From: Paraspadella gotoi
Lineage: Eukaryota > Animalia > Chaetognatha
Direction of reading: 5' to 3'
DNA: 64,000 bases
Assembly (NCBI GenBank): GCA_051294375.1
Contig: CM119265.1
Location: 11,905,818 to 11,969,817, forward strand
Shown here one piece after another: positions 1,673 through 45,230 of the stretch. Both the position numbers and the translations under genes were made by a program. The notes under the pieces were generated by a model. That model was not told the origin of the DNA. It saw nothing but the letters and a program-made list of their open reading frames with translations, and ran no database searches. Positions within the stretch are counted from its first letter, which is position 1. Every line of letters begins with the position of its first letter.

Positions 1673-1961
1673 AGTAAGGAAAAATTTAGTAAAGTAAAAA
1701 AATCTTTAAATATGCAAATGAATTTATGCTTATTTTAATTTAAATTTTTGAGACTACCAGCAGATAAAGTATGCTTTGTCTATTTTATGGTTAAAAAATC
1801 AATCCAGTTCTCTTGCATATTTTAGGTATAAATGACAATTGAATTTTGTTATTAAAATGACCGAAACTTGTATATGTTGTAGAGCAACCAAAGGCCCATC
1901 TAAGACTGTGAAGAGAACAGTAATTATTGATAAGTGTTAGTGACAAAACCGTTCAATATAA

Positions 1962-2035
1962 GCAGTCCCTGAGCTTCGGATCAGGCTGTAACACCATGTT
2001 ACAGGCGGGTTAAGCGCCCCGTCCCTCTTAACTGC
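1962..2035 (-). ncRNA. Putative type-P5 twister ribozyme in family A LTR (homologous copies in the other three A LTRs)
   Basis: GCAGTT-AA-GAGG-GA-CGG-GGCGCT-TAA-CCC-GC-CTGTAAC-ATGGT-GTTACAG-CCTGA-TCCGAAGC-TCAGG-GACTGC: conserved UAA, GC, GA and L4 AAGC; P3, P4, P5 pair; T1 CCG/CGG. Predicted cut between 2012 and 2011. P1 is minimal and P2 bulged. Confidence 0.72.
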
Positions 2036-2038
2036 CAG

Positions 2039-2110
2039 ACGACCACCGGGCTAGAACCCCGGACCTTTGGGTTGGGAGGCGAGTGACTTGCCTCTGGCAC
2101 CAATGGCCGC
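2039..2110 (-). ncRNA. tRNA-derived (Gly-CCC-like) head inside family A LTR; not a functional tRNA gene
   Basis: Acceptor GCGGCCA/TGGTCGT (perfect TGGCCGC in the 45-kb copy), T arm CCGGG-GTTCTAG-CCCGG, loop CTCCCAA; D and anticodon stems decayed. Confidence 0.7.
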
Positions 2111-3200
2111 AGATGAACGGTTGGTGGGTTTTAGTCCACCATACATCCCCCCCTCCCGTAGGAAGATGTCTGTTGCGTCTCTTCAGTGAATTGTTGTTGT
2201 TGGTGGAAAGTGCGTCACCAAGTTGAGGCATGTCGCCTGATGTGTTGTGGGCGGAAAGTGCATCGCCAGGTTGAGGCATGTCGCCTGAAAGTGTTGTTGT
2301 TGCTGTTGTGTTCGGAAGTCGGGCTCACCAATGAAGAGACAGTAATTATTGATAAGTGTTAGTGACAGAACCGTTCAATATAAGCAGTCCCTGAGCTTCG
2401 GATCAGGCTGTAACACCATGTTACAGCGCGGTTAAGCGCCCCGTCCCTCTTAACTGCCAGACGACCACCGGGCTAGAACCCCGGACCTTTGGGTTGGGAG
2501 GCGAATGACTTGCCTCCGGCACCAATGGCCGCTGATGAACGGTTGGTGGGTTTTAGTCCACCATAACTGTAATATAAAAGCATAATATTCATTAATATAA
2601 TAGTTATGACTGATTAAAAAAATGACCCATCTAAACTATTTCTTTTAGTAAAACTGTTCAAATTTTATTCATATTCTAACAACATCTTACAAACCCTTTT
2701 GAGTATGTATATATAAAATTTTTAAAATGTACTACATAAAATGACAAAGTTATGCAACTTTTAAAATTTTTTTTTTTTGGGCTTATTTTTAAGTGGTTTA
2801 GAATTGTCCGATTTAAATTTTAACCATATGGGCAATAGACATACGTTGAAAATATTTTATGTTAAAATATCAGCTCATTGGACGTAAAAATAAAAGAATT
2901 ATTTCATCTCTAGAAAAAGGACACTAGTCTCTACGCTTCGGGTACTATAACAAAAATAAAAAATATTTAAAAAAATTATGATATCTGAATTCCCGAAACG
3001 TTATCCTCTTCCGTTCCCATAGGCCTCCAGAGGGCATTGATCTCCAGGAATGCCCGCTTTTCTATAAGCGCGGGATATTTTTGACAACATTTGATTTAAA
3101 TACCTTTTTTGTTTGTTTTTGGGTTAATTTTACTTTCTTTTTCTCATCACGTTAGTAAATAAATGCGGGTTTTAACCGACAGACAGGCCAAATCGGACTC

Positions 3201-3985: not shown

Positions 3986-4575
3986 TATTATTTATTATCT
4001 AATGTATTCGCTTGTTTTTTTTTTCATGTACATCCGATTCCATCTCAAACTGAAATTCGCTCCCCATTTAAACTGTAGTAAAAAATATTCTTTATTTTCT
4101 GCGAGAACGCAGATCTGACCCGCTCATCGAATTTTCTTTCATCTCCGTCGCGTTGCGAGTAGTGTGGGGATTGAGGGGAGTGGAAAAAACGAGCGTGAGC
4201 GGATTGGGCGATTTAGCTTAATCCGAAATTCCCAATCTTACCTCAGAAAAGGTAGTTTATCGTTGCAATCCCCGCTNNNNNNNNNNNNNNNNNNNNNNNN
4301 NTGGAAGGCCGGTTTCGTTCGTCGTCGAGTTCACCATGTGTCAAAGTTCGTACTAATACTTACGTTTTTTTCTTTTTTTTTAGTTTATACAATACATCGT
4401 TTAAGGGTGTAATTATAAATTCCGCTGAGTTCTTTCAGCGAGTGGATAACGGCCAGGTAAACAGTATATCTCGATGGCGCTGTAACTAGTTAATGTGGTT
4501 ATTAATTACAGATTCTAATTTACAGAGCGCTGTATACATTCTTCTACGAAGACGTTATCAGAAAGGCCCTACAAG

Positions 4576-7500
4576 ATGCCGATTCAATCGCCACAGTGGA
4601 CGGACTTCTTATCGTGTCCGATATGTTTCAACGAATTCAATAATGCTGTTAGGAGACCGATTTCGTTAGGATGCGGTCATACAGCATGTAAACAATGCCT
4701 TCTGAAACTTCACCAGAAAAAATGCCCGTTCGATCAAACTCCCATTAATACGGAGCTAGACAATCTTCCCATCAATTTCGCTCTACTTCAATTGGTCGCT
4801 CCTTCAACGCCGTCTTCGAAGCACGAAGACTCCCCTCCTTCTTCGCCAAAGATTACGATGGAGCACAAACCCCTTTACCTTGCCGCAAACAGATGCATAG
4901 AAGAAATGGCGTTGTACTTAAAGCCACTTTCTGTCACCGGTAGCGGCGGGGGATCTAGTTTGTTATCCAGGCCAATGCAAAGGAAACTGGTGACTCTCAT
5001 CAACTGTCAGTTGGTCGAAGAAGAAGGAAGATCACGGGCCATGAGAGCGGCACGGTCTTTAGGGGAAAGAACGGTTACGGAATTGATTTTGCAGCATCAA
5101 AACCCTCAGCAGTTGAGCGCCAATCTGTGGGCTGCAGTGCGTGCGAGAGGATGTCAATTTCTTGGACCGGCTATGCAGGAAGAAGTATTAAAATTGATTC
5201 TCCTTGCTTTAGAGGATGGATCCGCTTTATCTAGAAAAGTTTTGGTTCTTTTTGTTGTGCAAAGGCTCGAACCTCATTATCCTCAAGCTTCTAAAACGTC
5301 TATAGGTCACGTAGTTCAACTGCTCTATCGAGCTTCTTGTTTTAAAGTTCAAAAACGTGAAGAAGATTCATCCCTAATGCAACTAAAGGAAGAATTTCGA
5401 ACGTATGATGCTTTGCGACGAGAGCATGACGCACAGATCGTTCAAATAGCAATGGAAGCTGGTCTAAGAATTGCTCCAGATCAATGGTCATCTTTACTCT
5501 ATGGCGATACGGCACACAAAAGTCACATGCAGTCAATAATTGATAAACTGCAAACGCCTCAGTCTTTTGCGCAGAGTGTAAATGAGCTTGTAATTGCTTT
5601 ACAGAGAACCGGAGATCCAGGAAATCTTTCTAGATTGCGACCACACTTTGATTTGCTTGCGAACGTTGATCCTAGCCCGGATTCTGGCACTCCCTCTTGG
5701 CGAGAAATAGAATACGCAATGGCGGCCGTTAAGACAGTTGTGGAGGGTCTTGTAGAATTTGTCCAGAGCCATAGTTCAAAAAGAGGGATGGTTGTTGGAT
5801 CATCTCCTCTTGCAACAAATACAACACAGCTTCCTTCTCCTTCTGGTTTTAGCGGATTAGGTGGGTTTACCACGTCTGGGGCGGATTACCCTACTAGGAA
5901 TATTATTCCAAATAGATATAAAACTAGCTTATGTCGGGACTGGGCGCAAAGAGGGTCGTGTCCAAGAGGCATGTGTTGTACTTTTGCTCATTCTGTTGAT
6001 GAACTTCAGAGGAATAAAAGATACAATTCGTCTCAGAATAACGCTTCAAACTTAGCGAGTTCCGCAGCGATAGGCGCCGCTGCTGCTGCAGCAGCCTCAA
6101 GAGCAGCTTATTCTGCTGCAGCAGCTGCATCAGTTGCTGCTAATTTGGAAAATCCTTCTGCTAAGAACCTAACGCATTACAATTCCAGACAAGGACCGCC
6201 TAAGCAATTTTCGTCACGAGTTCCAGGCAATCACCGTTTTCCAAATTTATCTTCAGACTTTAATTCTGCTCAACCTCCATTGCCTCGTCAAAACACGGGC
6301 TGGAATATAGACGTTTTTGGAGGCCACCTTGGTTTTCCTTCATGCCAAGGTTATACAACCAAGTATCCGACAAATCTACCAAGCTCAAGTTTTTCCAACA
6401 CTAAACAGGTTACCCCTAATTTACTTACACAAGATATTATGGGTTTAACAAACCAAGCCTCTTTGCCACCATGCACGCAAAGCAACTATCCCGCAGTCAC
6501 AGTGCAACAAGCAGCAGCTGTCGCCGCTCAACATCTGGATGCCGCGGATGCTTATTTCAGCCAAATTCAGAAAATACAGCAACAAGGCCAATTACCTCAA
6601 AAAGATCCGGTTAATGAAAAAATTAGATCTGCTGAACAGCAAACTGTTGCGGCCGCTGCGGCAGCAGCGGCCGCTGCGGCAGCAATCCAACAGACAAAAT
6701 CCGATCAAAAGATAGATTTAACCGGAGTCCCACCTTCTCCTAATCATATTCCTCAAGTTGCAGCAGCGGCCGCTGCCGCAGCAGCGGCTGGCCTTCCTCA
6801 AATTGACTATGCTCATTCTCCAATGTTTCATAATGTCATACCAGGAAAAGATCTTTCTCAAAATATACGACAAGTGAATTCAAAATCTTTAATATCAGGC
6901 TGGGAGCAGTTTGATTCGTTGCAATCTCTTCATCTTCGTAGGGATGCACTTATGGCGAAATTACAACAAATGCATCAATATCAACAGGATTATGCTATAA
7001 CACAGCAGGCTTCTGCTGCAGCAGCGGCTGCTGTAGAGCAGTTAAAACCATCTATTCATCAAAACTCTACTCAACCATATATGGTTGCCGCCAATGCGGC
7101 TTTAGCAGCCGCCGCAGCAACTGGGAATCAAACTTCTCAATTTCGTCAAAATCATGGGCAAAATGTTGAAGCAGTGGCAGCGCAAGTTGCGGAAGCCGCT
7201 AGCGCTGCCACTTTACAAGTAATGCAACAGCCAGACCCTAATCAAATCAAACAATTGCAACAGCACATCGTCGATCAGTTAGCTTCTGATCCTGGAGATT
7301 TAATTCCATTTGACTCGATCCCATCAATCTCGAAATATGGACCAATAACCAGAGCAACTAAACCTTTAGAAAGAGTCGTCCCATCTCCTTTAGCATTTGA
7401 AACGATGTCGCACCAAGGTTCGCCAGTTACCGGAGCTGCAACCGTGGCAAACGCTGCCGCTGCCGCTGCATTTGCTGCTCAATTAAGTTTATGCAAGGAT

Positions 7501-8301
7501 ACAAGCCAACTAGGATCTGGAAGAGTAAAGAGGCTTGCTGATAATCAAGAAGAAGCAAGAGTTCAAGAGATAAACAAAATCGATGAAGAAATTCACAAAC
7601 TTGACCGTCGAATCAACCGCGTTTATGAAGAGGAAATCTTGAAGCAAAAGCTAGCAGATGTAGAGGCACAAATAAAGCAGCTCGAATTAGGTCATTCCCG
7701 TAATTCATATACTCCAGTTGGCATATCCCAAAGCACTAGCGTAGATTCTTTGTCTATGCCTAATGCAACCATGAATTACGATTTGTCGAATGTTCTAAAT
7801 CAACTTGGTGACATGCCTGCTCGGCAGCCACAACCTTTACTAGGGGACATCGCAAATGAGTTTTCCATCGCGAGGCAAATGATAGAAATGCAACAAGCCA
7901 GTGGATTAAACCGACAGTTGCTTGATATGCAAAATATCGATCAGCAGATGCTTGCCACTGTTTTAAGAAGGTATCAGCAAGAAGCCGCTGAAGGATCACA
8001 ATCCCCCTATCCCTCAGTTAATTCTCAACTTGGGTCGAATTCTGAAATCGAGCAGATGGCCCGATTGCGATCCCCCTCAGCATCATCCGAATCTTGCATC
8101 ATGCCAGGAACTGGACAACAAACACGAGACAGTGGCCAAAACGAGACAAATCTCGATCATCTCTCCGAATCAGAACGTCATCAATGGCAACGTCTTCAGC
8201 GTCAGTTTAATCGACCATCTGATAGTTTAGAACGAGATGAGACCAGCAGTGACCAAGGCATAGTGAACGATTTCACTCAGCCTTATGGCTCAGACAATTA
8301 A
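4576..8301 (+). CDS. RC3H1: Roquin (RING - ROQ - CCCH zinc finger), 1241 aa, no CDS introns
   Basis: [21 protein letters not shown] start; ROQ domain ([41 protein letters not shown]); CCCH finger [26 protein letters not shown]; C-terminal IPF..SKYGPI motif and coiled coil. Likely 5' UTR introns at about 4252-4384 and 4457-4525. Confidence 0.97.
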
Positions 8302-8518
8302 TTATCACGCTTCATCAAGAATTAATTGAGCATTGGCTTTCCAAACGTTCGTTTACAATATACATTTTATAAAATGTTATTAAGTTACTAAATGTTTTAA
8401 ATATTGAAATTTTTTATCAAGGATTTGTTAGCTTTTTGATAAAATTAGTGATAATTAAAGAATAATAGTAGATGTAGGTATTACGTTGATTTCTTTTATT
8501 TCTTATACTTGTAGTTAT

Positions 8519-8752
8519 TGAAGAGACAGTAATTATTGTTATGTGTTAGTGACAGAACCGTTCAATATAAGCAGTCCCTGAGCTTCGGATCAGGCTGTAA
8601 CACCATGTTACAGGCGGGTTAAGCGCCCCGTCCCTCTTAACTGCCAGACGACCACCGGGCTAAAACCCCGGACCATTGGGTTGGGAGGCGAGTGACTTGC
8701 CTCCGGCACCAATGGCCGCTGATGAACGGTTGGTGGATTTTTGTCCACCATA
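8519..8752 (-). mobile_element. Solo LTR, family A (tRNA head + twister)
   Basis: 234-bp copy of the LTR at 2332-2565; TSD TTAT at 8515-8518 and 8753-8756. Confidence 0.92.
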
Positions 8753-8909
8753 TTATCAAGTTTTTTTCTTATAAATATTCAAGAGATATATGTACATTGT
8801 ACAACATGTTAGTTAGCATCAAATAATTTTTTTAAACAAACTTTCGTTAATTATTTATTTAAAAACAGGATAGGCCTGGGGCATATAATATATTTTGTCG
8901 ATCATATAT

Positions 8910-10822
8910 CAACAAGTTTGAGCAAACAATGTCGGATCTGCCTACGATAATTAAGTGGTAATAAGCGAACTTGATCAACTGACATAATTTGGTCAACTGA
9001 CATAATTTGGTCAACTGACATAATTTGGTCAACTGACATAATTTGGTCAACTGACATAATTTGGTCAACTGACATATAATTTGGTCACTATATGGTCACT
9101 GACATAATTTGGTCAACTGACATAATTGGTCAACTGACATAATTTGGTCAACTGACATAATTTGGTCAACTGACATAATTTGGTCAACTGACATAATTTG
9201 GTCAACTGACATAATTTGGTCAACTGACATAATTTGGTCAACTGACATAATTTGGTCAACTGACATATTGGTCAAGTGAATATTTGGTCAACTGACATAA
9301 TTTGGTCAACTGACAATTTGGTCAACTGACATAATTTGGTCAACTGACATAATTTGGTCAACTGACATAATTTGGTCAACTGACATAATTTGGTTCAACT
9401 GACATAATTTGGTCAACTGACATAATTTGGTCAACTGACATAATTTGGTCAACTGACATATTTGGTCAACTGACATAATTTGGTCAACTGACATAATTTG
9501 TCACTGACATAATTGTCAACTGACATAATTTGGTCAACTGACATAATTTGGTCAACTGACATAATTGGTCAACTGACATAATTTGGTCAACTGACATAAT
9601 TTGGTCAACTGACATAATTTGGTCAACTGACATAATTTGGTCAACTGACATAATTTGGTCAACTGACATAATTTGGTCAACTGACATAAATTTGGTCAAC
9701 TGACATAATTGGTCAACTGACATAATTTGGTCAACTGACATAATTTGGTCAACTGACATAATTTGGTCAAACTGACATAATTGGTCAACTGACATAATTT
9801 GGCATCAATTAACATAATTTGATCAATTAACATAATTTGATCAATTAACATAATTTGATCAATTAACATAATTTTTGTTGATCAATTAACATAATTTGAT
9901 CAAACCGGCATAATTTGGTCAACAGGCATAATTTGGTTACCTGGCATAATTTGGTCAATCAATCAATCAGAGAGAGACAGAGAGAGAGAGAAACTTAAAA
10001 AATTCAAATAAATGTGTCTTTTGGTTTTTTAATTTGAACTCTTTTCCACTCCTACGATTCCATCAAAAAATTTATATCCAGCTTTATCACATACTTTCCT
10101 ACCCACACACAAAATTTCATTTCAATTTATCTATCAAATTTTTAATAAACATAATAATTATGAGTAAATTTATGTAAAAATACTTCAAGTAAATATGACT
10201 TTTGTTTTTTCCATTTTAACTCATTTCCACTCGAACGATTCCATCGAAACTTTATATCCAGCTCAATCACACACTTTCCTACCATCATACAAAATTTTAA
10301 GTCAATTGCCCTATCCACTCATGAGCAATTGGCGTTCAAATAGTGAAATAGATTTTTTTGTTTTTTTTCCATTTAAACCAATTTCCACTCGAACGATTCC
10401 ATCGAAACTTTATATCCAGCTCAATCACACACTTTCCTACCATCATACAAATTTTAAGTCAATTGCCCTATCCACTCATGAGCAATTGGCGTTCAAATAG
10501 TGAAATAGATTTTTTTGTTTTTTCCATTTAAACCAATTTCCACTCGCACGATTCCATCGAAACTTCATATCCATCTCAATCACACAGTTTTCTACCCACA
10601 CACAAAATTTCTTACCAATCCATCCATCCAATCACGAGTAATTGGAGTTTTTTGCTAAGGGGGGCGGACGGACGGACATAATTTTTTTTGCATAATTTAT
10701 CATAATTCGAGGTTCTGATATGATAATAATGATTTAACGACAATATTTTGGGGTGGGACCGACGGACCGACAAAGTGAATTATAGAGTCGGAATCTGCTG
10801 ATAAGCAGATCCGACTAAAAAT
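8910..10822 (-). mobile_element. Non-autonomous Helentron / DINE-1-like element (HINE) with central tandem arrays
   Basis: 5' palindrome GTCGGATCTGC-TTATCA-GCAGATTCCGAC, GTCC microsatellite, subterminal GCAGATCCGAC and terminal CTTGTT on -; homologous to 17270-18374. Confidence 0.72.
8975..9960. repeat. 18-bp minisatellite (TTGGTCAACTGACATAAT)n, about 50 copies, inside the HINE
   Basis: Directly visible; drifts to TTGATCAATTAACATAAT at the right edge. A ~142-bp tandem repeat follows at ~10205-10640. Confidence 0.97.
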
Positions 10823-11009
10823 ATCTTGGTCACTAATATTTTTTTAAACTATTTTTTAATCCTTATTTTTCAAGTTGGAGACCAATTCAGTAATAAACTA
10901 TAGCTTTAAAAGAATCTGAGAAAAAATTTTTTTCCTCAAGTATTATTTGGTTGTATTTTCAAAATGACAATTGTTTTTGAACGAATTATTATTATTATTA
11001 TTATTATAT

Positions 11010-11277
11010 TGTGGATAAGGCGCTACGTGGACTGAAGATGACTTTCCGTAACTTCTATAACACCCTCTAGCAGCCATAGAACGGGTCCCTGGGCTTGGAA
11101 CCAGGCTTGAGGGTTTGCCATGCCCCCAAGGCGGCTTACGGCAGGGTAGGTACCGGGTTGGGATTGAACCCGGTGCCTTGTGGTCATGAGCTGATGGCTT
11201 TACTCAATGAGGCACCGGGTTACAACTGAAAGTGTCATGATTCTAGGCGGGGTGAACCTAGGCAATGCCCGACTACA
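11010..11277 (-). mobile_element. Solo LTR, family B (tRNA-Met-like head + twister with ~17-nt deletion)
   Basis: TG..CA termini; TSD ATAT; inverted copy of 20005-20287 but lacking the GCGTGAGGA (P2'/T1) segment. Confidence 0.88.
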
Positions 11278-11840: not shown

Positions 11841-12003
11841 ACGTTAAGCTCGACTTGTTTCCCACTTCGTTGAACTCATGTGAAATGAGTAATTTTTTTT
11901 TGTCGTGATAGCTTGAAGTTGAACTCTTGTTTGAACCTTAGATAATGGATGGATAAGTTCGGTTCGGTTCTTTTTCTCTCCTCCGGATTAAAAAGGGGAA
12001 AAA

Positions 12004-15000: not shown

Positions 15001-18000
15001 ATCATTTCAAGGTCGCGGTATCCGGACAAAATCTCATCTACCACAGGCAACGACTGAAAGCAGCGACGGGAGACTCGTCCGCTTTCAGAAATTAATAAGA
15101 AAATGAGAAAACAAAACTTGTAAATAAAGAAAAGATAGCAGTAGAAATAGTGGAGAACAAACAAGAGACTACAACAACAACAAACCAAATAGACAAACCA
15201 AAAGAAAATAAATCCACACCCCTCCCTCTAACCAAAAAAATCATCATCATCTTCATCATCCTTGCGAACGAACTTTTGAACTCCGGCGAAACGATCGAAG
15301 CTCGGCCGAAGAATAAAAAAAAAGGGGGAGCGGAGAAAAGGGAGATGGGTGAAGATCGAAAGACAAAGATCAACAGGGTCAAAGAAAAAAAGGGGGGGCA
15401 TTATAGCAACAGCTGGGTTGCCTGTGATGCCCATTGGGGGCTTCCGACCCTCAGTGACGACTCCAGTCACTGGCGCGGTTACCCTAGGACAGTCTCGCTT
15501 TGCCAACGCAGAGGGAATTCGTCAGGACTGGATGGAACACTGCGCCTGGGATGGTGTGTTCCCCCTCTGAGCCAATGGATTTGGCTGAAGGATGGTGGAC
15601 ATGAGGCGGTGTGAATATACTGTCACAGGATCCCTGGGCCAAGACATCACTCAGATTCCTCAAGCCTGAGAGTGTCTGACAAGACTGTTACCATAGTAGG
15701 AGAGAGAGCGTGAGTTGTGGGGCCATAGGCATTTGTCGTAGCGTACCCCAGGGGCATAGGCGTTTGCATAGCATACCCAAAGTCGGCAGGGCATAGGCGT
15801 TTTGTCGTAGCGTACCCTGAGAAGGTTTGCGTGTTTGATAGTAGGGCTCACCACTTATGGCAACAGCCGGATTGCCAGTGATGCCCATTGGGATGAGGCA
15901 TCTCACTGTTGGCTTTGTGGGCTTCCGACCCTCAGTGACGCCTCCAGTCACTGGCGCGGTTAGCCGGTTACCCTAGGACGGTCTTGCTTTGCCAACGCAG
16001 AGGGAAGTCGTCAGGACTGTGGATGGAACACTACGCCTGGGATGGTTCCCCCTCTGAGCCAAGGGATTTGGCTGAAGGATGGTGGACATGAGCCGGTGTG
16101 AATATACCGCCATAGCATCCCAAAAGGGCAAGGAGGGCCAAACGAAGAAGAAAAAAAGAAAGAAAAAGAAAGAAGCAGACATAAGAGAAGGAAGAGAAGA
16201 GGAAGTGAAAACGCATGGCCAGACTCAGCAGAAAAGAAATCAAGAACACTTTCAACAAAAAAAAAAGAGAAAATGAATCGCCGGTTATCAAAATTCACGC
16301 TCGTTGCAATAATCATCGCGCTCAACGCCCCGAACGATGCAACCACGAGAAAAAGAGGCCAAATCGGCGCCACCGACTTTCAAAAAAAGCGTCATTTTTA
16401 ATTGCAACGAGATGACCGACAACACAGCGATTGTGTTGGACGAAACCAGAGGAACGAAAGAAAGATTCGAAACTACAAACCTACTCTTCGCCCAGGAATC
16501 AAACGAACACGACGGCGTTGGCTGTGACCTCACAATAGTGGCGACTGGACGATACTGCGGAAGATGGTCGATCCCAAGGGATATCTGCCTGGACCTGCAC
16601 AGAGGAAAATCAGTGAAACTGCAATCCATTCCAATCCGGATCGCATGAGCTAAACATCATCAAGCACAGGAATGGCATGAACGACGCCACCAGAGCATGC
16701 ACGGGAAAATTGTTAAGCTTTCATGGCCACCGATATGAAAGCGAAAACGCAAAACTGGTTTCAAATCTAACTCTTTATAAAAGAAAAATTAAAGCCGGAA
16801 AAACAAACAAAATCAAAACTCGGGCGCCGCAACCTGGCAAGCCAAGAATGCAGCTACCCAGGCGGCGTCATCGCCTGGGACAACAATGAATGCCGCATCA
16901 AGCTCGCCTACAGGGGAGGCGTCTTCAGGAGCGCCGATAAAATAATCAGATCACTTACTAAGAGCTAGACACATTTTTTTCCGCAAATGGTGATAGAAAC
17001 TTCGAAAAACCACCATTCGATTTGAAATAAAATTCTCTTTCGAATGATGTGTTACATGGTGACAATTTTACAAGCGCCGGTAGAAATATGCTGTCATTTG
17101 CAAACCAGTGGTTATTTTATTGATTTTAAAAATTAGTTGAGTAGAAAATACTAAAACTATTTGTGTTAAAATTTTATATTGATCAGTTAAGATATGCCTT
17201 GACAATGAGTGGAGAAAGTTGGCTTGTAAAATCGGGTTTCATTTTCCAACTCACTTTTTTTAGATTCAATTTTTAGTCGGATCTGCTTATCAGCAGATCC
17301 CGACTCTATAATTCACTTTGTCGGTCCGTCGGTCCGCCCCCTCAATATTGTCGGGCACTAACTTATATCATGTCAGAACATCGAATTATGATAAATTAAG
17401 CAAAAAAAAATGATGTCCGTCCGTCTGTCTCTCTGTCCGTCCGTCGGTCCCACCTTAGCAAAAAACACCACAATTCTCATATATAATAGGTGATGATGAT
17501 TGATGAAATTTGTGTGTGGGTAGGGAAGTGTGGATTGAGCTGGATATAAAGTTTCGATGGAATCGTCCGAGTGGAAATAGGTTTAAATGGAAAAAACCAA
17601 AAAATATAATTCACTATTTGAACTTCAATTGCTCATGAGTGGATGGGGCGATTGACCTGGAATTTTGTATGTGAGTAGGAAAGTGTGTGATTGAACAGGA
17701 AACAAGTTTCGATGGAATCGTTTTGAGTGGAAATGAGTTTAAATGGAAAAAAACAAAAAACCTGTTTCACTAATTGATTATGATTTTTTTTCCTTTTATA
17801 TTAAATGTATATGCAGGATGTATTAATAAATCAAATAATTAATCAGTTAATTAATCAATTAGTCAATTAATCACTAATTAATTAATCAGTCAATCAATCC
17901 GTCCATCCATCCTACCTTAGCAAAAAGCCCCAATAACTCGTGATTGACTGGTTGGATCGGAATGAAATTTTGTGTATGGGTAGTAACATGTGTTATGAAG

Positions 18001-21000
18001 CTGGATATAAAGTTTCGACGGAATCGTGTGAGTGGGATATGATTTTAAATGGAAAAAACATAAGTCGCATTTACTAAAATCTTTTTACTTATTTTAACCA
18101 ATAAATCTCTAATTAATCATAATTGGATGGATAGGATTGAGTTAAAGATATTGTGTGTGGGTAGGAAAATGTGTGACGAAGCTTGATATAAAGTTTCGGT
18201 ACGAGTAGAAAAAATATAAGTCCAATTTACTTTATTTTAAGGACATCGATGATGATAAGCTGTATATAAATTATAATTAATTATTAAATATTAAAATTAA
18301 TTAATTAATTAATCAATTGATTAATTAATTAATTTTCCTAGGCAGATCCGACATTTTTTGCTCAAACTTGTTTTCTCTTACTTTCAGTAAGTTTTCTGAA
18401 GAAATTTGAAATAAAATAGTATTAATTTTATTATTCTTTTGAAAGCCCTTTCAAATCTAAAAAGAATGACGTACTTACAAATACTGTAGTATAAAATTTA
18501 ACTGGCCCAGCTTTAATTAATAAGGATACTCAAAAACGAGACATCTTTTTAAAAATCAATAGCTGGAGAATAAATTATGATATTTATCAAATTGTGATTT
18601 GGCTATCTTAAATCTTTTTTTCTCAGGCTCTTTCATGATACTTATAATAAGTTCAGTGATTTTGATCGAGGAATTCAGAAAAAAAACCACTTTTTGTAAT
18701 ATTGCTAGAATATTACCTTCAAAATAAAAAAAATTATGTCCATTTTTGTCCATTTTCACTTTTGTCTTGAGATTTGAATGCCAAGATCATTGAAGAAAAA
18801 TTTTTTACTCCGGCTTTCAGGTCCTCCTTATCTTCTTTACCTCTGAGTTGGTTCATTTTCAGTTGGTCATTTATTGTTTACCTATGAATTAATTTTTAAA
18901 TTGACTGGTCAAAAACTTACATTTTTACATTTTATTACAATTTGTTAAACAAAAATACTTCAAAATGATCACAATTCTAATAAAATATTCCTTATGAACG
19001 GTGCTTCTGGTACCTAAAAAATTAGGGCAAAATATTTAATACTTTTGCTGCAAAAAAATTTTTAAGTCAACTTTTAATTTGTGAGGATTTGTGAGGTGCG
19101 TTTTATTTGAACTAAAACTCGGTTTTTAACTCATTTTATAGTTTTAACAGATGATAAACATACTAAGGTTGACAAATTAAAAAAAACCGCCTTCTTTTAT
19201 TGAAAGGGGAAGCGTCAGCAAATTAATTTTTCTCAATCGACAGCTTTTTGCGGAAAAAATTTTCGCAAAAATCTGTCGATTTTTNNNNNNNNNNNNNNNN
19301 NNNNNNNNNNNNNNNNNNNNNNNNNNNNNNNNNNNNNNNNNNNNNNNNNNNNNNNNNNNNNNNNNNNNNNNNNNNNNNNNNNNNNNNNNNNNNNNNNNNN
19401 NNNNNNNNNNNNNNNNNNNNNNNNNNNNNNNNNNNNNNNNNNNNNNNNNNNNNNNNNNNNNNNNNNNNNNNNNNNNNNNNNNNNNNNNNNNNNNNNNNNN
19501 NNNNNNNNNNNNNNNNNNNNNNNNNNNNNNNNNNNNNNNNNNNNNNNNNNNNNNNNNNNNNNNNNNNNNNNNNNNNNNNNNNNNNNNNNNNNNNNNNNNN
19601 NNNNNNNNNNNNNNNNNNNNNNNNNNNNNNNNNNNNNNNNNNNNNNNNNNNNNNNNNNNNNNNNNNNNNNNNNNNNNNNNNNNNNNNNNNNNNNNNNNNN
19701 NNNNNNNNNNNNNNNNNNNNNNNNNNNNNNNNNNNNNNNNNNNNNNNNNNNNNNNNNNNNNNNNNNNNNNNNNNNNNNNNNNNNNNNNNNNNNNNNNNNN
19801 NNNNNNNNNNNNNNNNNNNNNNNNNNNNNNNNNNNNNNNNNNNNNNNNNNNNNNNNNNNNNNNNNNNNNNNNNNNNNNNNNNNNNNNNNNNNNNNNNNNN
19901 NNNNNNNNNNNNNNNNNNNCATAATTCCTCCTTTGAGGTCATCAGAACTGATTGGATCTTTAAAGTTGATTGCTGCCATTTTCAGGGAGTGTCTATTCTA
20001 TATTTGTAGTCGGGCATTGCCTAGGTTCACCCCGCCTAGAATCATGACACTTTCAGTTGTGACCCGGTGGCTCATTGAGTAAAGCCATCAGCTCATGACC
20101 ACTAGGTACGGGTTCAATCCCAACCCGGTACCTACCTGCGGAAGCGTGAGGACGCGCCGTAAGCCGCCTTGGGGGCATGGCAAACCCTCAAGCCTGGTTC
20201 CAAGCCCAGGACCCGTTCCATGGCTGCTAGAGGGGGTTATAGAAGTTACGGACAGTCATCTTCAGCCCATGTAGCGCCTTATCCACATGGGAGCCCATCC
20301 TGTCGAGCGTATTCCACCTTCTGATTCCAGGCCCTTGGTCTAGCTAAAGATTGCTCCCCTCCCTCCACTTGATATACTTACAAAAGCTCTAACATAAAAA
20401 GTGAGCTGCCCAGCCTTAGTTCAATTAAGAGTGTCAAAAGTGAATTATTTAAAATTTTAAATCTTTTTTCAAAATATATGACCTGTTTAAATTATTATAA
20501 CATAAAATATTATTATTTATGGCAGTGATTTTGCTTTGGGTATTTTCAATAATGAAATTGGAACTTAAATAACTTAATTCTTTTTTCCCACTGATAAATA
20601 TGAAACACTCTTATTATAAAAAAACGGTTTGGTATTAGTTATCTTTTCCTTATAACATAAAACTCACTAGGTAAATTTTTATGCTTTCAAAATACGGTAA
20701 GACATTATTTCTTTCACGTCAATCATTCCAATTACGGTATCAGCCTTAATTAAGAAGAACTAAAAACGATTTTTCATGGTAAGAACAACTTTTAAAGATA
20801 AAATTGCTCGTAAAAACTGTTGTTTTTTTTAGATATACTACTACTTAGGCAAAAAAATCGGCACACTATGTTATGAAACTTTTTTTTGTTTTCCTTTTCT
20901 TTCTTAATTTCTTTCTTTTTTCGAACTTTTGCTCTGACTCTCTCTTTTTCTCTTCTCTCTGTGTTAAGTATTTTGATGCTTCACGCTCCCATAATAAGCG

Positions 21001-31659: not shown

Positions 31660-31896
31660 TATGGCAATGTAGGGACATGTGTGATGCCTGGGGTGTGAGG
31701 TATCTCCCGACACCTGCAGTGACCACCCCATGTCACTGGCGTGTTTATGCCAATACCATCACACTTTAACCAGCGTGACCATGAGGGGATTGAACCCGGA
31801 ACTCACGGTTGGTGAACGAGTACTAAGCTGTCCAAGCCAATGGGACGAGCTGAGTTTCACCAAGCTATACGGGAGGCGAATTTAGGATTCGCCACA
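31660..31896 (-). mobile_element. Solo LTR, family D (tRNA-like head + partly deleted twister)
   Basis: TGTGGC..GCCATA on -; TSD ATTA; B box GGTTCAATCC; GTGT-GA-TGGT-ATTGGCA-TAA-ACAC-GC-CAGTGAC..GTCACTG gives perfect P2 and P3, but the P4 loop is missing. Confidence 0.82.
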
Positions 31897-36000: not shown

Positions 36001-36903
36001 GAAAAAATTTATATATATATAATTTGAAAAATAAAGCTTGTAAAAGATTTTATTTTTATTTGTATTAAAATTAAGATATAGCTTTTCATTAAAAAGGTTT
36101 TTTTATTTCACATGTTTTTTATTGATTTAAAGATTTTTTTATGAATTTCATCTTCAATATTATTTACTGCAATATGTAAATTAGATTAAAACATTTCTAT
36201 ATAATAATTAGAATATTTTATTGAGTACTATAATCTCATTTGCATATTGCAGTAAATCATAATGAAGTATAAATTCAAACAAAAAATACTTGAATCCAAA
36301 TGTAAGAGTGATGGAGGCCTTAAACCACCAAAGCCTGTCCAAAGTCAGGGGCAAGATAGCTTATTTATTAAATGAATGGATAATTTTTATATTGGTTGTA
36401 CCAATTTCATAAAAATTTTAAAGCTATTTCATGATGAGAAGCCACTTACTATGATCGCACACTTTTATAAAACTTCATCATAATTCATAATAATTTTTAT
36501 TTATTTATTTATTTAAAAAAAACGGTCCCAGCCAAAACTATCAAAGCGTAGTAGTTTTTATACAAAAAAGCGTGACGACGACGACGTCACAAAGAAGCTC
36601 ACCCGAAACAATATCGAGCTTAAACCGGCTTCGCCGGCAGGCTCGATAAAAAGTACATTCTCTGAGAGGGAGCTCTCGAGGCATTCCGGGGTTAGTACAC
36701 TGTTACAAAATTACAATGAAAATTTAACACTAAACTTTATAGGAATCCTTGGCGTTGTCTTTGTTCTTGCGGCAAAGGGTTTGTTTGGTCTTCTTCTTCA
36801 TGTAATTGCTGACTCAGCAATGCTGAGTTCTTCTACCATTGTGGCCAATCACCTCTTTGCCGGGAATCTGTCTCCTTCTGGAAATCGTTGTCCTTCCTCC
36901 CAT

Positions 36904-38948
36904 CTGCAACAAATGGTCATAGAAACTTCAGAAAACCACCATTCGATTCGAAATAAAATTCTCTTTCGAATGATGTGCTATATGATTAACTTATTTAAAG
37001 ATTTCGCTTGACCCAGCGGCGTCAAAGTTCCACATGCGTCAGATTCATTGATTTACATATATTTTGAAACGTTGAAGGGATCTATGTGATGTTTTTAATC
37101 ATTATGGATTGAAATGAATGTAAAACTCCGATGTAGTTGTAATTTATTAAAAATTAATAAAAAAGTATTAAGCAAAATATACCGGAAGTGTAATTTTAAT
37201 ATTTTTAAACCAATTTATCTTCTCTCATGAAAGTGACGGCAAGAGGCAAACAATTCTTGCATTGTTATTGTTAACTGAATCTTTAAACTTGAAGTTCATA
37301 AGACACTGTTTGGCTTAGGTGAGATCGACGATGTTCTTCAACGCCCTGAAGCATTGCTTCGTGTTGCATTTTATTACGGGTTATTGAACCATTGTAATCA
37401 CTTGCAAATTTAACCACCCTCTCCCCAGCATCATTGAGTGGCGAAAATCCATTTACAAGCTTGCAGAATGAGTGGTAGTTGGCGTTATCATTACATTCTT
37501 CCACAGGTTTCGACAAAAAAGATGGCTCAAAGTGACAAAGCTGTGTAATAAATTATAATTATCATTGAAATAAATATATGAAATTGGTACAACCAATATA
37601 AAAATTATCCATTCATTTAATAAATAAGCTGTCTTATAATAATATATAATTAAATATAAAAATTATTGATAAAATATTGCAAATGAACCTGAAAAAACAA
37701 CCATGAATCAGACGAAACCTAATCTTCTAATTTGCTGTTTTCATATACGCATGGTATTTCCGGCTTTCCCATTTCTACTTGGACCTTTTCAGAGCTCAAG
37801 AGGGCTTCAGCCATCGACATTCTAGTTGAGTTTGTGACTTTTTTTGAAGCCAAAGCGAGAATAACCAAGCGGCCAGAAAGATATTCGGTATGTAAATCAA
37901 TCTTTCTTAGTCCAGCATGTGCCCCATCGCGATTCCTTGATCGCCACGCCATTAGATCTTCATGAAGGGAGAGAGTAAGGAATGGAGCATCCGCCATGAA
38001 TGGACAGCAGAACCAGTAATAAAATTAAATGTACAAGATGTAATTAGACATCACTAAGACATCCATTTTCTGCTGGTGACTCAAAACGAAAGAATCACCA
38101 ACGATCAGCATTTTGAGAATGTAGAGGCAGCTACCCATCCAACGAGCGTGATGTATCATGCTTAGCCTTTTTGTCACGTGAAGTTGAGCTTCTTTGCCGA
38201 AGAAAAACAGACGAGATCAACTGACTTCATATTAATTTTATTATGAGTGTGCTTTTGGCAATATAATGATAATTGATTTCTAAAATCTAAATAAATTTGC
38301 AAACTACAAAGCATTTTGTGCATAATTATTTATCTAATTTTACTCTACTCATATTCTACTAAAAATATGATATTGTAACCTTTTTCCTTAGTTCTTCCTT
38401 AGTTCTTTCAAATTGTTTTCAGGTGAAGCAAAGGGATTCGCGCGTCACCCAGTTTCCAAAGGTTAATTCTAGAGCTACGACATTAGCAGTCTCATTTTTA
38501 TCTCGTTGGTTTTTGGGCTGAGTGTAAAAAATGTCAAAGAACCGTTCCAATACTGCTGCCCCTTTTGGTGGTTCTGCCGGCGGTGGTCGAAAGTTCGCTA
38601 AGCGCTTGCAAATACCGAATTCGGGAAACAGAGGAAACTCGTCCCCTGTAGCAGAGCGAGTGTTCATGATTAATGGACTGTCTGTAAAAAAAGATTATTC
38701 TTAATAAATTAAAGAATAACTATCTATCAGTCACAGAAATTTAATAATTAACTAAATTATATCGAAAAATAATAAATATTGTAACTGAGAAAGAGTTCCA
38801 ATTTGGATGTTGTTACCTAGTTGCTTTCAACTCGCCTGGGTCAAGCGTAATATTTTTAGAAATTAATTAAATTATATACCAAACGAAAGAGAATTTTATT
38901 TCGAATCGAATGGTGGTTTTCCGAAGTTTCTATGACCATTTGTTGCGG
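36904..38948 (-). mobile_element. Decayed DNA transposon with long TIRs and transposase remnants; superfamily unassigned
   Basis: Inverted ends GCAACAAATGGTCATAGAAACTTC..ATTCTCTTTCG; ORF fragment LNDAGERVVKFASDYNGSIT..MLQGVEEHRR (37283-37516) resembles common invertebrate transposase C-termini. A lone end copy lies at ~16980-17055. Confidence 0.65.
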
Positions 38949-40213: not shown

Positions 40214-40333
40214 CTCTTCCGATGGCACCGCGTTGCTCTTCCGATGGCACCGCGTCGCTCTTCCGATGGCACCGCGTCGCTCTTCCGTTGGCACCGCGTT
40301 GCTCTTCCGTTGGCACCGCGTCGCTCTTCCGAT
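40214..40333. repeat. 22-bp tandem repeat (CTCTTCCGATGGCACCGCGTCG)n within a GC-richer repeat-laden segment ~39460-41290
   Basis: About 5.5 copies; 23-bp repeats at ~39974-40056 and 21-bp repeats at ~41043-41120 lie nearby. Confidence 0.9.
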
Positions 40334-42482
40334 GAATCCTTATCTTTTTGGCATATGCAGAACGCCTTGTTTGTCCGTTTTGGATGCCTCGCTCGACCGT
40401 CCAGATTGCCTCGCTTGACCGTTTTGAATGCCTAGCTTGAATGTCCCAAATGTCTCGCTTGAATGTCCCGAATGCCTCATTTGATTGTCCCAGATCTCTT
40501 GCTTGATTTTCCCGTATGTCGGGCTTGACTGTCCAGATCGATTTGCTTGACTGTCCAGAACGCTTACTTGTTTGCCGAAACGGATTTCCCGTTTGAATGA
40601 ATCCTGCTGTTTTCTTCAAGCGAAATGCTTTTTTTTTTTCTCTCAAAAATAACTTTTTCGTCTATCATTGTTATTTTTAAAATCCTTTAAAAGAAAATTC
40701 GTTCCGAATTTTTTTCTCGCGTTACATCCTCGTTGCGAGACTCAGGTTTTTTTCTCACTGCCATCTTTCCTCCGCTCGAGACTTCGATCCTTCTGGTTTT
40801 GAACTTTGGATCCGCGGCCCGTGGATTCACTGTCTTCGTTGAAAGTTGAGAACCGAATTCCCAGAGAGAGAGAGAGACTCCTCGAAATTTCGTATCTTTC
40901 GTCGTTTCGCGGCTCGTTTTTCCGTATGTTACGGCTGTCGGTTTGGCCGAATCCTTATTCCTTATTTGACGTCATCTTTGTTCGCATTTTCATCTGTCCC
41001 CATCATCATCTGCATCTATGATCGTATAACGGCAGTTCTTTCTCGCATCATCGTAGTAATGGATCGCATCATCGTAGCAATTGATCGCATCTTCGTAGTA
41101 ATTGATCGCATCATTGTAGTTTTTGTCCTCGCCGTCGCCCCTATTCAGAGATGTGGAAGCGATCGATTTTCCGCCGCTGCCAATCCGGCGCTTCCCAAGA
41201 ACCCTCCCGCTCCCGTTTTCGGGTGCAATCCTTATTTTTTTAGCCCGGATCGCTTTCGGTTTCGAGTGCACATCGCTTCCTTCCTTTAAAAATTTTACAT
41301 TTGTTATTACTTATAAAAATATTCTCTTTAGACATGTAATTCATTGGTAGAATAATTTTAAACAATCTTTTTTGTTAATAATTAACAAATAAAATTTTTA
41401 CTATGAAAAATTTTAAGATTTATAAGATTATAAGAATCGTTCGAGTGGAAATGAGTTTAAATAAAAAAAACAAAAAACCTGTTTCCCTATCTGATTTTTT
41501 CTCTTTTAATAATTGTAAATACAAGCTGCATTAATTATTCAATTAATCAATTAATTAATCAATCAATCAATTAACTAATCAATAAAAAAATTAATGCATC
41601 AATTTTTTTATCAATAAATCAATTAATCAATCAATTTATCAATCACTAATTAATAAATTTATTTATCAATAAATTATTAACAGAACCAATTAATTAAACA
41701 ATCAATTAATCAATCAATTAAACAATGTCAGTGTTATCATTGTCATCTCCAACGTCGTTGTTGCTTTTATCCTGGTCAGTGACCTGACAAAAAGACCTAA
41801 AATTTAACAGGCCTGATATGAATTTCATTTAATTGATCAATCAATCATTCAATTAATCATGACGGTATTATCCTCGTCGTCATCATCATCATGGTCGTCA
41901 TTTCTTTTGTCATAATTAAAAGACGAAAAAACAAACAAGTTTGCACTAACAATGCCAGAACTGATCAGTTACTTATTTATTCAATCAATTAAGCAAATAA
42001 TCAATCGATCAAAAAATTAAGCAATCAATTTGTCATCGTCGGTGTTATCATTGTCGTAGTTGCCATCATTAATTATTTAATTAATTAATTTAGAACAAAG
42101 TTTGAAGAGAGATTTAACATGTGAGTCGAAACATGTCCGTTTCACTATGAAATAAAAATTGTTGTTAAATCTCTCTTCAAACTTTGTTCTAAACCAAATC
42201 ACAACGAAACAGAAAGGAAAAAATCACAATGTCTAATTAATTAATTGAAATTTTTTTATAATGTTTGCCGTGACTCAAAGCAAGAATTTATAGAAAAATT
42301 TAAGGAGTGTTTTTGTGATAAAAAAACTGGTATTATCAAAACAGTAAAAAAGCAAAATGAAAAAATAATAACAACAACAACTAGTATTTATATTGGCTGA
42401 GAAAAAGTCAGCCATAACAAGGTCGGGTAAGAACAGGTCATTCTTATTGACCACTACTGTACTACGGGTCACAAAGTACAAG

Positions 42483-43197
42483 TACCCCTTTTTTGTGACC
42501 AGAAACACGTTCCGAGAAATCTACTGAATAGAATTTAATGAAATTTTGCATGCGGAGTACCAGTAGTGATACAAATGGAACTATCAAGGCGAATTTTTAC
42601 ATTCCACCCCTAAGCTGAGATAAGGGGTCCTGAGGGGGCAGCCCCTGAGGGCCACAAATGGTCAAAAAATTTTTTTTAAATTTTTTTATTATTTTTGTTT
42701 TAAACAGTTGCACAGACGTTTACTCTTCCACAAAAACGTATTTATTACCTCAAAAATATTCATTTACCTTAATTTTTAGCTTCATGAACATCAGCAGTTA
42801 AAGTCAGATTTAAATAATTTGGGAAAAATTGGAAGTAAAACGATGAACCATGCATCTTCAACCATGCTTAATTATTGCAAATTTATCAATTTTAGTTCTA
42901 AAATGTTTTTTTCTTATGTTTAAAACGTCAATGCACCTGATGCTACTAAAAAAATTTGAAAAAAATATAAAATTTAGCATTTTTTGGCCCCCCAGGGGTC
43001 CACCCCCAGGGGTCCACCCCCAGGGCCCTGTATCTCTTGTCAGGGGTTGAATATCAAAATTCGCCTCGATAGTTCCATTTATATAGTCATTAGCACTCTA
43101 AATGTAAAATTTCATTAAATTCGATTGGGTAGTTTGGTGGGAACAGATTCTGGTCACAAAAAAGGGGTACTACATTTTATAATATAAAGTCTTCTGT
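42483..43197. mobile_element. Second copy of the same MITE, outer left TIR missing
   Basis: Near-identical to 22801-23497. Confidence 0.85.
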
Positions 43198-44996
43198 ATT
43201 TATTTTATTTTAAATAAGTCGTTTAATTTTATATTCCTTTCCCTCTTCTTTTTCTTAGTAGATCAATTCGAGTTTGTTCAAAACAATACATTCCAATGTC
43301 AGGATCAAGAATGAATGAAAATTGCGGAAATTGGTATCCCTCCAAAATTTTACATAAAACAATCCCAAAATGCACGTTTTGAAATCGACTTTTCCGTGTA
43401 TAATGTAAGCGTCGTGAAACTAAGCATTTCTTTAAACAAGAAAAGGATACTTGAATTAAAGCTGAGAGGCCAAAAATTGAGTTCACATGTCCTTATAGTT
43501 GCAGGGTGGGGTCACTCCGTTACATTGTTACAGCTCTGTTTGGGCGACGAAGGTTTCGCCAACACGGGGTTGACCCTAGTTGGTCACTATGTTGTTTGGT
43601 CACGAGGGAAGCCGGTTACTGACCATCGATCTCTCTCTCCCTCTTTCTTGGTAAATGCCTCGCTCTCCCTCGATTAGTCTCTCTTAGTATCTCAACGATT
43701 GAATATGTGTCTGTCAATAACTATTGTGAAATGTATTTATGTGCCTCTACAATACCTTTTACTTATTTAATTTTTTTTTCATCAGTCATGTTTTTATTGT
43801 ATATATACTTGTATAGTATTTATTAATTGAATATCCCTCGGAAACTCGTAAAAACGAGGTTTCTCCGGGTGAAACACATTTGTGAGTTTACAATTTTAAA
43901 TCCATTTCTCTCGTTAGAGGTTAACGAGGTTAAAAGCAAAGTTAAAATAACGGCCAAAAAATGGACCGGTCGAAAATTGACTGGGAATGAGAGAAACGAA
44001 TCAAGATATCTTTCACAATTGGTTTGTTGCTTTTCATTATTTTTATAAGATAGAAACATGGCTTAAAGCTGCCTGGAAAGTAGTGTCAAAAGAATATCAT
44101 TCAAGCATTCTGATTCATTAGGAAAAAAATTTTCAAGGCTTATTACACAATCCATGAATATTAATAGCAATTATAATTATTAATTATTATTAATTAATTA
44201 TTATATTTATAATAATTTTTATGATAGAATAAGTAGCAAGTTGTTTCTTTAAATTTGAGCACTATGTTCAGTTTAAAGCATATAGTAAAATACTTCTTAT
44301 TGAATAGACTAATCGCCAGATAAATAATTTGTTTTGAAAATAATATTTACTTAATATTCAATTTATAATAAGAAAATTAACCGAGTATGGACTAAACACC
44401 AATTTCCAGTAACGTGAGACAAATGCAAAATCTGATAAGAATATAAGTTCAGATTTAAGAATTAAGATGCCTCCTATCTAAAAATTAAGTATCTCATACC
44501 ATGCTTCATTATTCATTACAATAAATAATACAGCAATGTAAAAATTATAAAATGTTCTTTGTTTTGATAAGGAATAAAAAAATAATATTAATTCTAAATT
44601 TAAACAGAAAAAAATTTAAAAAAAGATAAAAAATAAAAATCTTTTGAAACTATGATATTTATTTTAATTATATGCTATGATAGTTTTTTCATGACATTTA
44701 TGATACTGATACAACTGTCATATAACAATAAAAAACTATTAAAAACTATTAATATTGCGTATTTGCTTAATTACTGAGCGTTATTTCCGGTTTTGGACAC
44801 GCCCACTATGGGTATGAACAATTTTTTAAAAAACATTTTAATGTAAAACTTATTAAATAATGAGACTAATTGTAAGATAAAAATAATAATTACTTAAATA
44901 TTAAGTTTTAAGAAAAAGGAAAAATTCCATGTTGTAGTCAACGTCAACTTCCGGTCAATTGTGCGTGGGTCTAACGCAAAATCTGAATGATGATAC

Positions 44997-45230
44997 TGAA
45001 GAGACAGTAATTATTGTTAAGTGTTAGTGACAGAACCGTTCAATATAAGCAGTCTCTGAGCTTCGGATCAGGCTGTAACACCGTGTTACAGGCGGGTTAA
45101 GCGCCCCGTCCCTCTTAACTGCCAGGCGGCCACCGGGCTAGAACCCCGGACCTTTGGGTTGGGAGGCGAATGACTTGCCTCCGGCACCAATGGCCGCTGA
45201 TGAACGGTTGGTGGATTTTAATCCACCATA
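44997..45230 (-). mobile_element. Solo LTR, family A (tRNA head + twister)
   Basis: 234-bp copy; TSD ATAC at 44993-44996 and 45231-45234. The host repeat is uninterrupted in its inverted copy near 33290-33370, which serves as an empty site. Confidence 0.92.

Follow-up and report, generated by a model that had tools for sequence, protein, structure and literature searches.

The window analysed here is a 64,000-nt stretch of the genome of the chaetognath Paraspadella gotoi (GenBank GCA_051294375.1, contig CM119265.1, positions 11,905,818–11,969,817), which contains genes or gene pieces for SIKE, roquin, amidase (GatA-like), START, PQ-loop, and PARP, together with eight insertions of short elements with long terminal repeats (LTRs). 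According to the first-pass annotation, made from the sequence alone, these insertions form four families, A–D, whose LTRs combine a tRNA-like head with a twister-type self-cleaving ribozyme fold. The coordinates of all eight could be verified (Table 1), as could the exact 4-bp duplications of the target site (TSDs) at seven of them; a 5-bp TSD was seen in none, and B2 has no TSD. The families are indeed nearly unalignable: the top cross-family match, between C and D, spans 44 nt at 82% identity (E-value 4e-5), by which D is, as far as sequence can tell, distant kin of C, and the other cross-family matches cover 14–23 nt only, located in the B box or the P4 loop. Within families, copies are 95–97% (A), 89% (B), and 87–89% (C) identical. 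The eight insertions comprise 11 LTR copies, and their sense strand, as defined by the site of primer binding (PBS) and by the polypurine tract (PPT), is the minus strand for A, B1, C, and D and the plus strand for B2. B2 comprises a 5' LTR and then a PBS-like stretch that adjoins an assembly gap, the remainder of the element not being seen. Inside the elements with two LTRs, A1, C1, and C2, no Pfam-type open reading frame turned up, no search having been aimed at such frames.

Table 1. Features of the LTR elements and of family E in the window (strand, sense strand of the element; cuts are predicted and fall between the two positions given).
Feature	Position	Strand	Remarks
A1, full element	1909..2565	-	657 bp; two LTRs, 96.6% identical; 4-bp TSD
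A1 5' LTR	2332..2565	-	minority P2/P3 variant
A1 5' LTR, tRNA-like head	about 2461-2532	-	A box from 2524, B box from 2480
A1 5' LTR, twister fold including P5	2384-2457	-	cut 2434/2433
A1 PBS	2318..2330	-	12/13 nt complementary to the tRNA-Trp 3' end in Kojima Fig. S2
A1 PPT	2146..2157	-	precedes 3' LTR
A1 3' LTR	1909..2143	-	tRNA-like head about 2039-2110; twister fold 1962-2035
A1 3' LTR, predicted cut	2012/2011	-	cut-to-cut unit 422 nt
A2, solo LTR	8519..8752	-	core 8578-8636; cut 8621/8620
B1, solo LTR	11010..11277	-	TSD; no whole core
E1	12756-about 12890	-	core 12830-12873; P5 8-9 bp
C1, full element	15402..16114	-	713 bp; two LTRs; TSD
C1 3' LTR	15402-15627	-	core 15436-15498; cut 15481/15480
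C1 PBS	from about 15853	-	Trp-type; C1 PPT weak
C1 5' LTR	15856-16114	-	core damaged
B2	20005..20297	+	LTR 20005-20287; whole core 20144-20209; then PBS-like stretch
B2, predicted cut	20160/20161	+
C2	28366..28914	-	549 bp; two LTRs; TSD; only 60 nt of 3' LTR left
C2 5' LTR	28660-28914	-	core 28721-28783; cut 28766/28765
D1, solo LTR	31660..31896	-	TSD; half core only, 31717-31764
E2, 5'-shortened copy	36301-36421	+	core 36306-36349
E, third copy	37574-37635	-
A3, solo LTR	44997..45230	-	core 45056-45114; cut 45099/45098

The overall design of these elements has been described. Miniature retrotransposons with terminal repeats (TRIMs) that have tRNA-derived sequence in their LTRs are known as Helenus (Kojima, 2024, PMC10886601), and the animal Helenus families have 4-bp TSDs and are inferred to be mobilised by Gypsy enzymes. 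The insertions of families A–D appear to fit Helenus (TRIMp3), because they are short non-coding two-LTR elements, or solo LTRs of such elements, with tRNA-like A and B boxes in the LTR, a PBS and a PPT, and 4-bp TSDs; several families per genome and an inferred Gypsy helper are further shared traits. The B box is canonical and exact in B and D and has one mismatch in A, and the head of family A folds an acceptor-like stem and a T-arm; ARAGORN called no tRNA genes in the window. The PBS of A1 points to tRNA-Trp, as in Helenus-2_SyJa (PMC10886601), and shorter Trp-type sites are present in C and B2; a clear PPT is seen in A1, a weak one in C. Of the tRNA-promoter-plus-twister LTR for which the first-pass annotation knew of no earlier description, the tRNA-in-LTR half is already published, and for a twister in an LTR no published description was found in the literature searched.

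The two systems differ in what follows the tRNA. Most published animal Helenus consensus LTRs, as judged by eye from the accessible supplement of PMC10886601, have a short T-rich tail soon after the tRNA and then end, whereas here the tRNA head lies in the LTR's 5' half, with the twister fold behind it. A full-text term search of the same paper returned “twister” zero times and “ribozyme” once, in a reference title, and self-cleavage is mentioned nowhere in it. Five heptamers of the L4 loop gave 14 matches in the accessible supplement, none of them behind a tRNA head in an LTR (line breaks in that file may conceal matches), and no twister was seen by eye among the animal Helenus consensus LTRs of its Data S1. 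The Helenus families of Nasonia and zebrafish were considered as possible carriers of the twisters known from those genomes, and rejected, as none is visible by eye in their consensus LTRs (PMC10886601). In the ctenophore Helenus-1_MLe-LTR of the same data set, too, the tRNA is found at the 5' end of the LTR, and no ribozyme was recognised by eye in the roughly 200 nt behind it.

On the sense strand, the tRNA head is followed, in this order, by P5, an A-rich joint, P2', GA, T1', a 6–8-nt linker, UAA, P2, T2, P3, P4 (with the loop U-NNN-AA-GY), and P5', where P denotes paired stems and T1 and T2 the two pseudoknots. All catalytic-core letters (GA, UAA, and U-NNN-AA-GY) stand in the correct order in families A, B, and C, and also in a fifth family, E, which shares the fold and was overlooked in the earlier element list. 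A structural descriptor of the fold was passed by seven of the 11 LTR copies (A 4/4, B 1/2, C 2/4, D 0/1), so that the full motif is not found in each insertion, as had been stated, and a whole fold is present in three of the four LTR families named. The remaining copies are broken in different ways: B1 has lost about 17 nt with P2'-GA-T1', in the C1 5' LTR one P2' base is altered and 8 nt are duplicated at the cut site, and the C2 3' LTR is the remnant listed in Table 1. D1 retains P2 (4/4 pairs), GA, UAA, GC, and P3 and lacks the L4 loop, P4', and P5', for which reason family D was rejected as a fourth whole ribozyme.

The T1 pairs are as claimed (CCG/CGG in A, UCC/GGA in B, and CGG/CCG in C), and P3, P4, and P5 diverge in sequence between families and still pair. 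When the two T1 sides are swapped among A, B, C, and E, all three Watson–Crick pairs form in four out of four own-family combinations and in none of the 12 foreign ones; T2 is changed on both sides in E (AC/GU versus GC/GC), and P4 pairs best within its own family. We regard this as strong structural agreement and do not present it as a formal covariation statistic, because four sequences are few and possibly related. Across the five families, the first P2 pair is C-G, G-U, C.A, A-U, and A-U, and the second and last pairs are always C-G. RNAfold forms P3, P4 with its 8-nt loop, and P5 of A2 unprompted (z -1.98). MAFFT aligned eight cores with their anchors out of register, and this alignment was therefore not used for a covariance model or for counting pairs.

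Could the fold be a chance reading of GC-rich hairpins in the LTRs? The descriptor was tuned after the sequences had been seen, being widened to permit a three-nucleotide P2, and the Rfam scores given below stay under threshold. The first version, which required four nucleotides in P2, matched three loci versus 0.57 expected; the strict version matched nine sites in the window (seven LTR copies and two copies of family E) versus a mean of 0.05 in 40 block shuffles, and a looser one matched 12 versus 2.4. None of 80,000 dinucleotide shuffles (20,000 each of A2, B2, the C2 5' LTR, and E1) passed, the T1, T2, and P4 pairing is family-specific, and Rfam Twister-P5 independently gives weak matches to E and B2 at the same coordinates. 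Chance is therefore very improbable as an explanation and close to refuted. In metagenome contigs, the pattern of a B box plus a twister yielded 119 loci in the 59 of 64 parts scanned, and none of the 119 passed the structural filter, so that no relative was found there. The first-pass annotation is supported in describing non-coding LTR elements that have a PBS and 4-bp TSDs and in which a twister fold in P5 order follows a tRNA-like head.

Family A, in which alone copy-level variation was followed, is young and very abundant. Of 11 sequencing-run entries, nine contain the stretch, all as contigs; none is listed as RNA, and the tentative RNA label of X9 was disregarded. Contigs from four sequencing runs (three studies; two may have yielded the window's own DNA) were placed on positions 1800–2700, around A1, giving 19,793 records in run X4 (of 7,042,937 contigs) and 16,186, 2,937, and 1,331 in the other runs; contig depths do not measure copy number and were not taken to do so, and the joints among these contigs gave no information on circles. 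In run X4, loose ends with unrelated flanks at the LTR ends numbered 208, 95, and 87, and because of these many unrelated flanks family A has at least hundreds of insertions. Among 40 of the 98 variant rows, the 59-nt core of the A1 3' LTR contains three variants (two P3-loop sites and one T1 site), and most others lie in U3 and U5 (the unique 3' and 5' regions of the LTR) and in the tRNA head; conservation of the core relative to its flanks is suggestive only. The variant rows at 2422–2429 reflect the odd P2 of the A1 5' LTR alone.

We propose that these elements are Helenus-type TRIMs which are likely retrozymes, that is, whose RNA is predicted to cut itself in both LTRs, the released unit being circularised and copied by Gypsy enzymes; the probability of this reading is, by our estimate, roughly 0.55. 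Pol III (RNA polymerase III) would initiate at the 5' LTR's tRNA head and transcribe through the element, whose sense strand has almost no runs of four T. The twister in each LTR would then cut at U|AA, releasing in A1 the cut-to-cut unit of Table 1. Owing to the P5 order, the 3' half of the first LTR's ribozyme lies at the start of this unit and the 5' half of the second LTR's ribozyme at its end. In the predicted fold of the A1 unit, P5 and a 9-nt complement between U3 and U5 pair these two halves and bring the ends together, the complement being clear in family A only. Such a unit has no R (terminally redundant) repeat, a situation with which plant LTR retrozymes deal through circularisation and run-around reverse transcription (PMC4918200, PMC7761336). 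By analogy, a host ligase would close the unit, tRNA-Trp would prime at the PBS, and run-around reverse transcription would rebuild both LTRs without an R repeat. Finally, a Gypsy integrase would insert the copy, producing the 4-bp TSD. The internal region of A1 (2144–2331, minus strand) contains a duplicated unit, and a stretch near its PPT is complementary to the LTR 3' end and could pair both ends of the internal region.

A number of observations weigh against this reading. A match to a covariance model had been named beforehand as a check on the claim, and it was obtained only in part: Rfam searches with E-values up to 1 (window) and up to 10 (three LTRs) gave no gathering-level twister, tRNA, or hammerhead match, the Twister-P5 model (RF02684) scored 25.8 bits on E1 (the best in the window) and 16.1 bits on B2, compared to 37.6 bits for gathering, with no score for A, and C1 reached 13.2 of the 67.2 bits required by the twister P1 model. 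P2 consists of three pairs and a bulge in A, B, and E, has a C.A mismatch (3/4 pairs) in C, and is complete (4/4) only in the broken D; P1, P2, and P4 are the essential stems of the twister, with four pairs in P2, and an altered number of P2 pairs has been suggested to disturb the active site (PMC5408937). P1 itself is reduced to the short linker, often palindromic, which forms one or two pairs as a monomer and six as a dimer; twister cleavage does not require P1 (PMC5408937, PMC8501958) and has been reported near the wild-type level without it (PMC5408937). The B2, C, and E cores have ordinary fold z-scores, between +0.23 and -1.28, P5 of B has only about four pairs, the B box of C is short and degenerate, and four of the 11 LTR copies have no complete core. 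In family A, a T1 variant at 1977, present at 3–15% of depth in the four runs, breaks a pair at a CpG, and no compensating change is found among the 40 of 98 variant rows. The circular A1 unit (z -0.94 versus 100 shuffles, 52% paired) is not unusually stable, unlike the circles of plant retrozymes. Runs of four T number three on the sense and seven on the antisense strand of the eight insertions; being rare on both strands, they are a weak sign, and their scarcity was rejected as proof of Pol III use. No Gypsy partner was seen in the window, and the 28 window frames searched with Pfam included no reverse transcriptase and no integrase.

Since P2 departs from the consensus and the Rfam scores lie under the gathering line, we describe the fold as a twister-type variant in P5 order, to judge from its sequence, and not as a formal member of the class. 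Of the consensus twister in P5 permutation that had been claimed, the P5 order, the core letters, and T1/T2 stand, and the P2 form and the gathering score do not. It shares with the type-P5 twister (RF02684; PMC5408937) the order of elements, the core letters, T1, T2, and P4 with its 8-nt loop, and its optional P3 resembles the consensus of the Rfam P1 model; it differs in the three-pair P2 with a bulge or mismatch, the 6–8-nt, often palindromic P1 linker, and the score. One P2 form recurs in three unrelated repeats (A, B, and E), in which the first pair varies and the two others stay constant; this argues for a kept variant and not for decay.

The last point bears on the possibility that the fold is a relic, in which tRNA-headed units resembling short interspersed elements (SINEs), with a twister tail perhaps derived from a Penelope-like element of the E type, were captured into TRIM LTRs, where the promoter alone is used and the short P2 cripples the ribozyme. 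SINE capture has been proposed as the origin of Helenus (Kojima, PMC10886601), and family E has the same twister variant outside an LTR: its copies, two out of three of which pass the descriptor, have a common 3' end, variable 5' ends, and a perfectly palindromic linker, and no tRNA head or TSD was seen in them. Because of the fixed 3' end and the variable 5' ends, E is possibly the tail of a non-LTR or Penelope-like element, and one might speculate that it is kin to the source of the LTR twister. The off-consensus P2, the four broken copies, and the position of the intact-looking B2, in sense within an intron of the amidase gene, would also agree with a relic. Yet three nearly unalignable LTR families retain every core letter and both pseudoknots with differing sequences, A, B, and E share one P2 form, wasp Helenus seems by eye to have a different ribozyme at the same place (PMC10886601), and an active ribozyme whose role could be dispensed with would cleave the RNA of its own element and be selected against. 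We therefore consider a relic unlikely.

Alternatively, the twister could be active and yet serve only in the 3' LTR, where it would take the place of the T-run in generating a linear RNA's 3' end; the 5' copy would be held inactive, an R repeat (the tRNA head and half of the ribozyme) would be kept, and replication would proceed by ordinary LTR strand transfer. The T-rich tail of most published animal Helenus LTRs (by eye, PMC10886601) is absent here, the A1 unit circle is not especially stable, and the unconstrained fold of the two-LTR A1 transcript (-201.5 kcal/mol) is lower by a wide margin than both active forms and has the cores misfolded. However, the ribozymes of both LTRs are identical in design and upstream context, with nothing obvious that would silence the first alone, and the ends of the cut-to-cut unit are adjacent in the predicted fold; we judge this explanation, too, to be rather improbable.

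Within the retrozyme reading, cleavage may depend on the two LTRs together. We tentatively suggest, at somewhat below even odds, that the two LTR ribozymes form a strand-swapped pair through the palindromic P1 linker, which would spare solo LTRs and the finished circle; such a pair would parallel dimeric minimal hammerheads. The self-pairing energies of the linkers are -8.3 (A), -11.0 (C1), and -9.1 (E) kcal/mol, matched by 12%, 1.8%, and 1.7% of permutations, respectively, and none of the linkers forms a hairpin alone; the strand-swapped A1 ribozymes (-185.4) also score lower than two monomers (-182.2). Against the pairing, the B linker is unremarkable in self-complementarity (66% of permutations are as good), the C2 linker breaks the palindrome (-6.2), and the difference of about 3 kcal/mol between the swapped form and the monomers lies within model error.

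The plant LTR retrozymes (PMC4918200, PMC7761336, PMC6765202, PMC12029980, PMC9695139) likewise have a ribozyme in both LTRs, a non-coding middle, a PBS and a PPT, 4-bp TSDs, solo LTRs, and a proposed Gypsy helper; they differ in the type-III hammerhead (here, a twister-type fold), the tRNA-Met primer (here, Trp-type), the length of 1–1.5 kb, circles that are very stable and were seen by Northern blot, and the fact that no tRNA-type promoter is described in the accessible texts. No type-III hammerhead was matched in the LTRs of families A–D in the Rfam scans of the window and three LTRs. LTR retrozymes are stated to be “primarily found in plants” (bioRxiv 10.64898/2026.07.22.740005), and the elements described here likely work like retrozymes without being filed as such. 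The hammerhead SINEs Sm-alpha of Schistosoma (PMC6765202) resemble them in having a Pol III promoter followed by a ribozyme, and the Perere-3 twister variants (PMC8501958) in having a reduced-P1 twister in a retroelement; both are non-LTR, without a PBS, a PPT, or an integrase-type TSD, and the Perere-3 twister is P1-type and lies at the 5' end.

In the accessible parts of the literature searched, the elements with twisters are all of the non-LTR kind and the LTR retrozymes all carry hammerheads (PMC8501958, PMC7761336, PMC6765202, PMC4918200, PMC5408937, PMC10085705, PMC7936874, PMC12029980), and no twister in an LTR was found, Repbase, Dfam, and most subscription papers (including Roth 2014) being outside the reach of this search. 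Thus the tRNA-in-LTR TRIM design is known and both halves have precedents, and the combination, a twister-type fold behind a tRNA head in a Helenus-type LTR, appears to be undescribed.

A parallel comes from gall wasps of the genus Synergus, where we take Helenus-2_SyJa-LTR and Helenus-2_SyUm-LTR to carry an apparent complete type-III hammerhead, read by eye against the hammerhead consensus. In this reading of the accessible Data S1 of PMC10886601, stem III has 6 bp, stem I 7 bp, and stem II 4 bp, with a 12-nt loop–loop complement. The wasp LTRs share with those of P. gotoi a tRNA head near the LTR 5' end, a ribozyme directly behind it, and a tRNA-Trp PBS, and differ in the class of the ribozyme, which goes unremarked in the accessible text of PMC10886601. 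If the reading is right, a single slot in animal Helenus primed by tRNA-Trp is occupied by ribozymes of two classes unrelated to each other, which would be the best indirect sign that cleavage is used.

Some further features of the window are given for completeness. Relative to the host genes on the plus strand, E1 and six of the seven LTR insertions between positions 1 and 33000 are in antisense orientation; A2, about 220 bp beyond the roquin stop codon, is antisense to roquin, and B2, with its whole core, lies in sense orientation within the amidase gene, which has exons from 11992 to 24889, gene limits here being only approximate. The roquin gene (4519–8301, plus strand) appears as a single uninterrupted frame of 1260 codons, while the neighbouring genes have introns, and its N-terminus is 79–80% identical to myriapod and insect, 77% to octopus, and 75–76% to vertebrate proteins. 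GC-richer frameshifted frames at 58400–62800 are what we take to be a decayed retroelement, DIRS-like by its motifs, and those frames that were tried gave no Pfam match. Other repeats are a 295-bp dispersed family (14253–14547 and 29413–29706), an element of about 730 bp that has long terminal inverted repeats and occurs twice (22767–23499 and 42504–43204), and tandem arrays of 18-bp (8907–9836) and 9/18-bp units (24039–24470).

A broader and doubtful proposal is that animals harbour a hitherto unrecognised class of self-promoting LTR retrozymes: Trp-primed TRIMs that join a Pol III head to a slot for exchangeable ribozymes, filled by a twister here and a hammerhead in the gall-wasp Helenus, in which the twister would cut only when LTR copies strand-swap through the palindromic P1, so that only full-length transcripts would be excised and circularised. 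To our knowledge, most eukaryotic twisters have no assigned role. If the retrozyme reading is true, the twister would gain a second defined job, in both LTRs of a young and abundant animal family, by means of a variant overlooked by the Rfam cut-offs; the ribozyme slot of an LTR parasite would be modular; and the tRNA head would supply the promoter missing from retrozyme models. It raises the questions of whether a twister with a three-pair P2 cuts, whether twisters can act as dimers like minimal hammerheads, and whether a Pol III LTR element may replicate via a circle.

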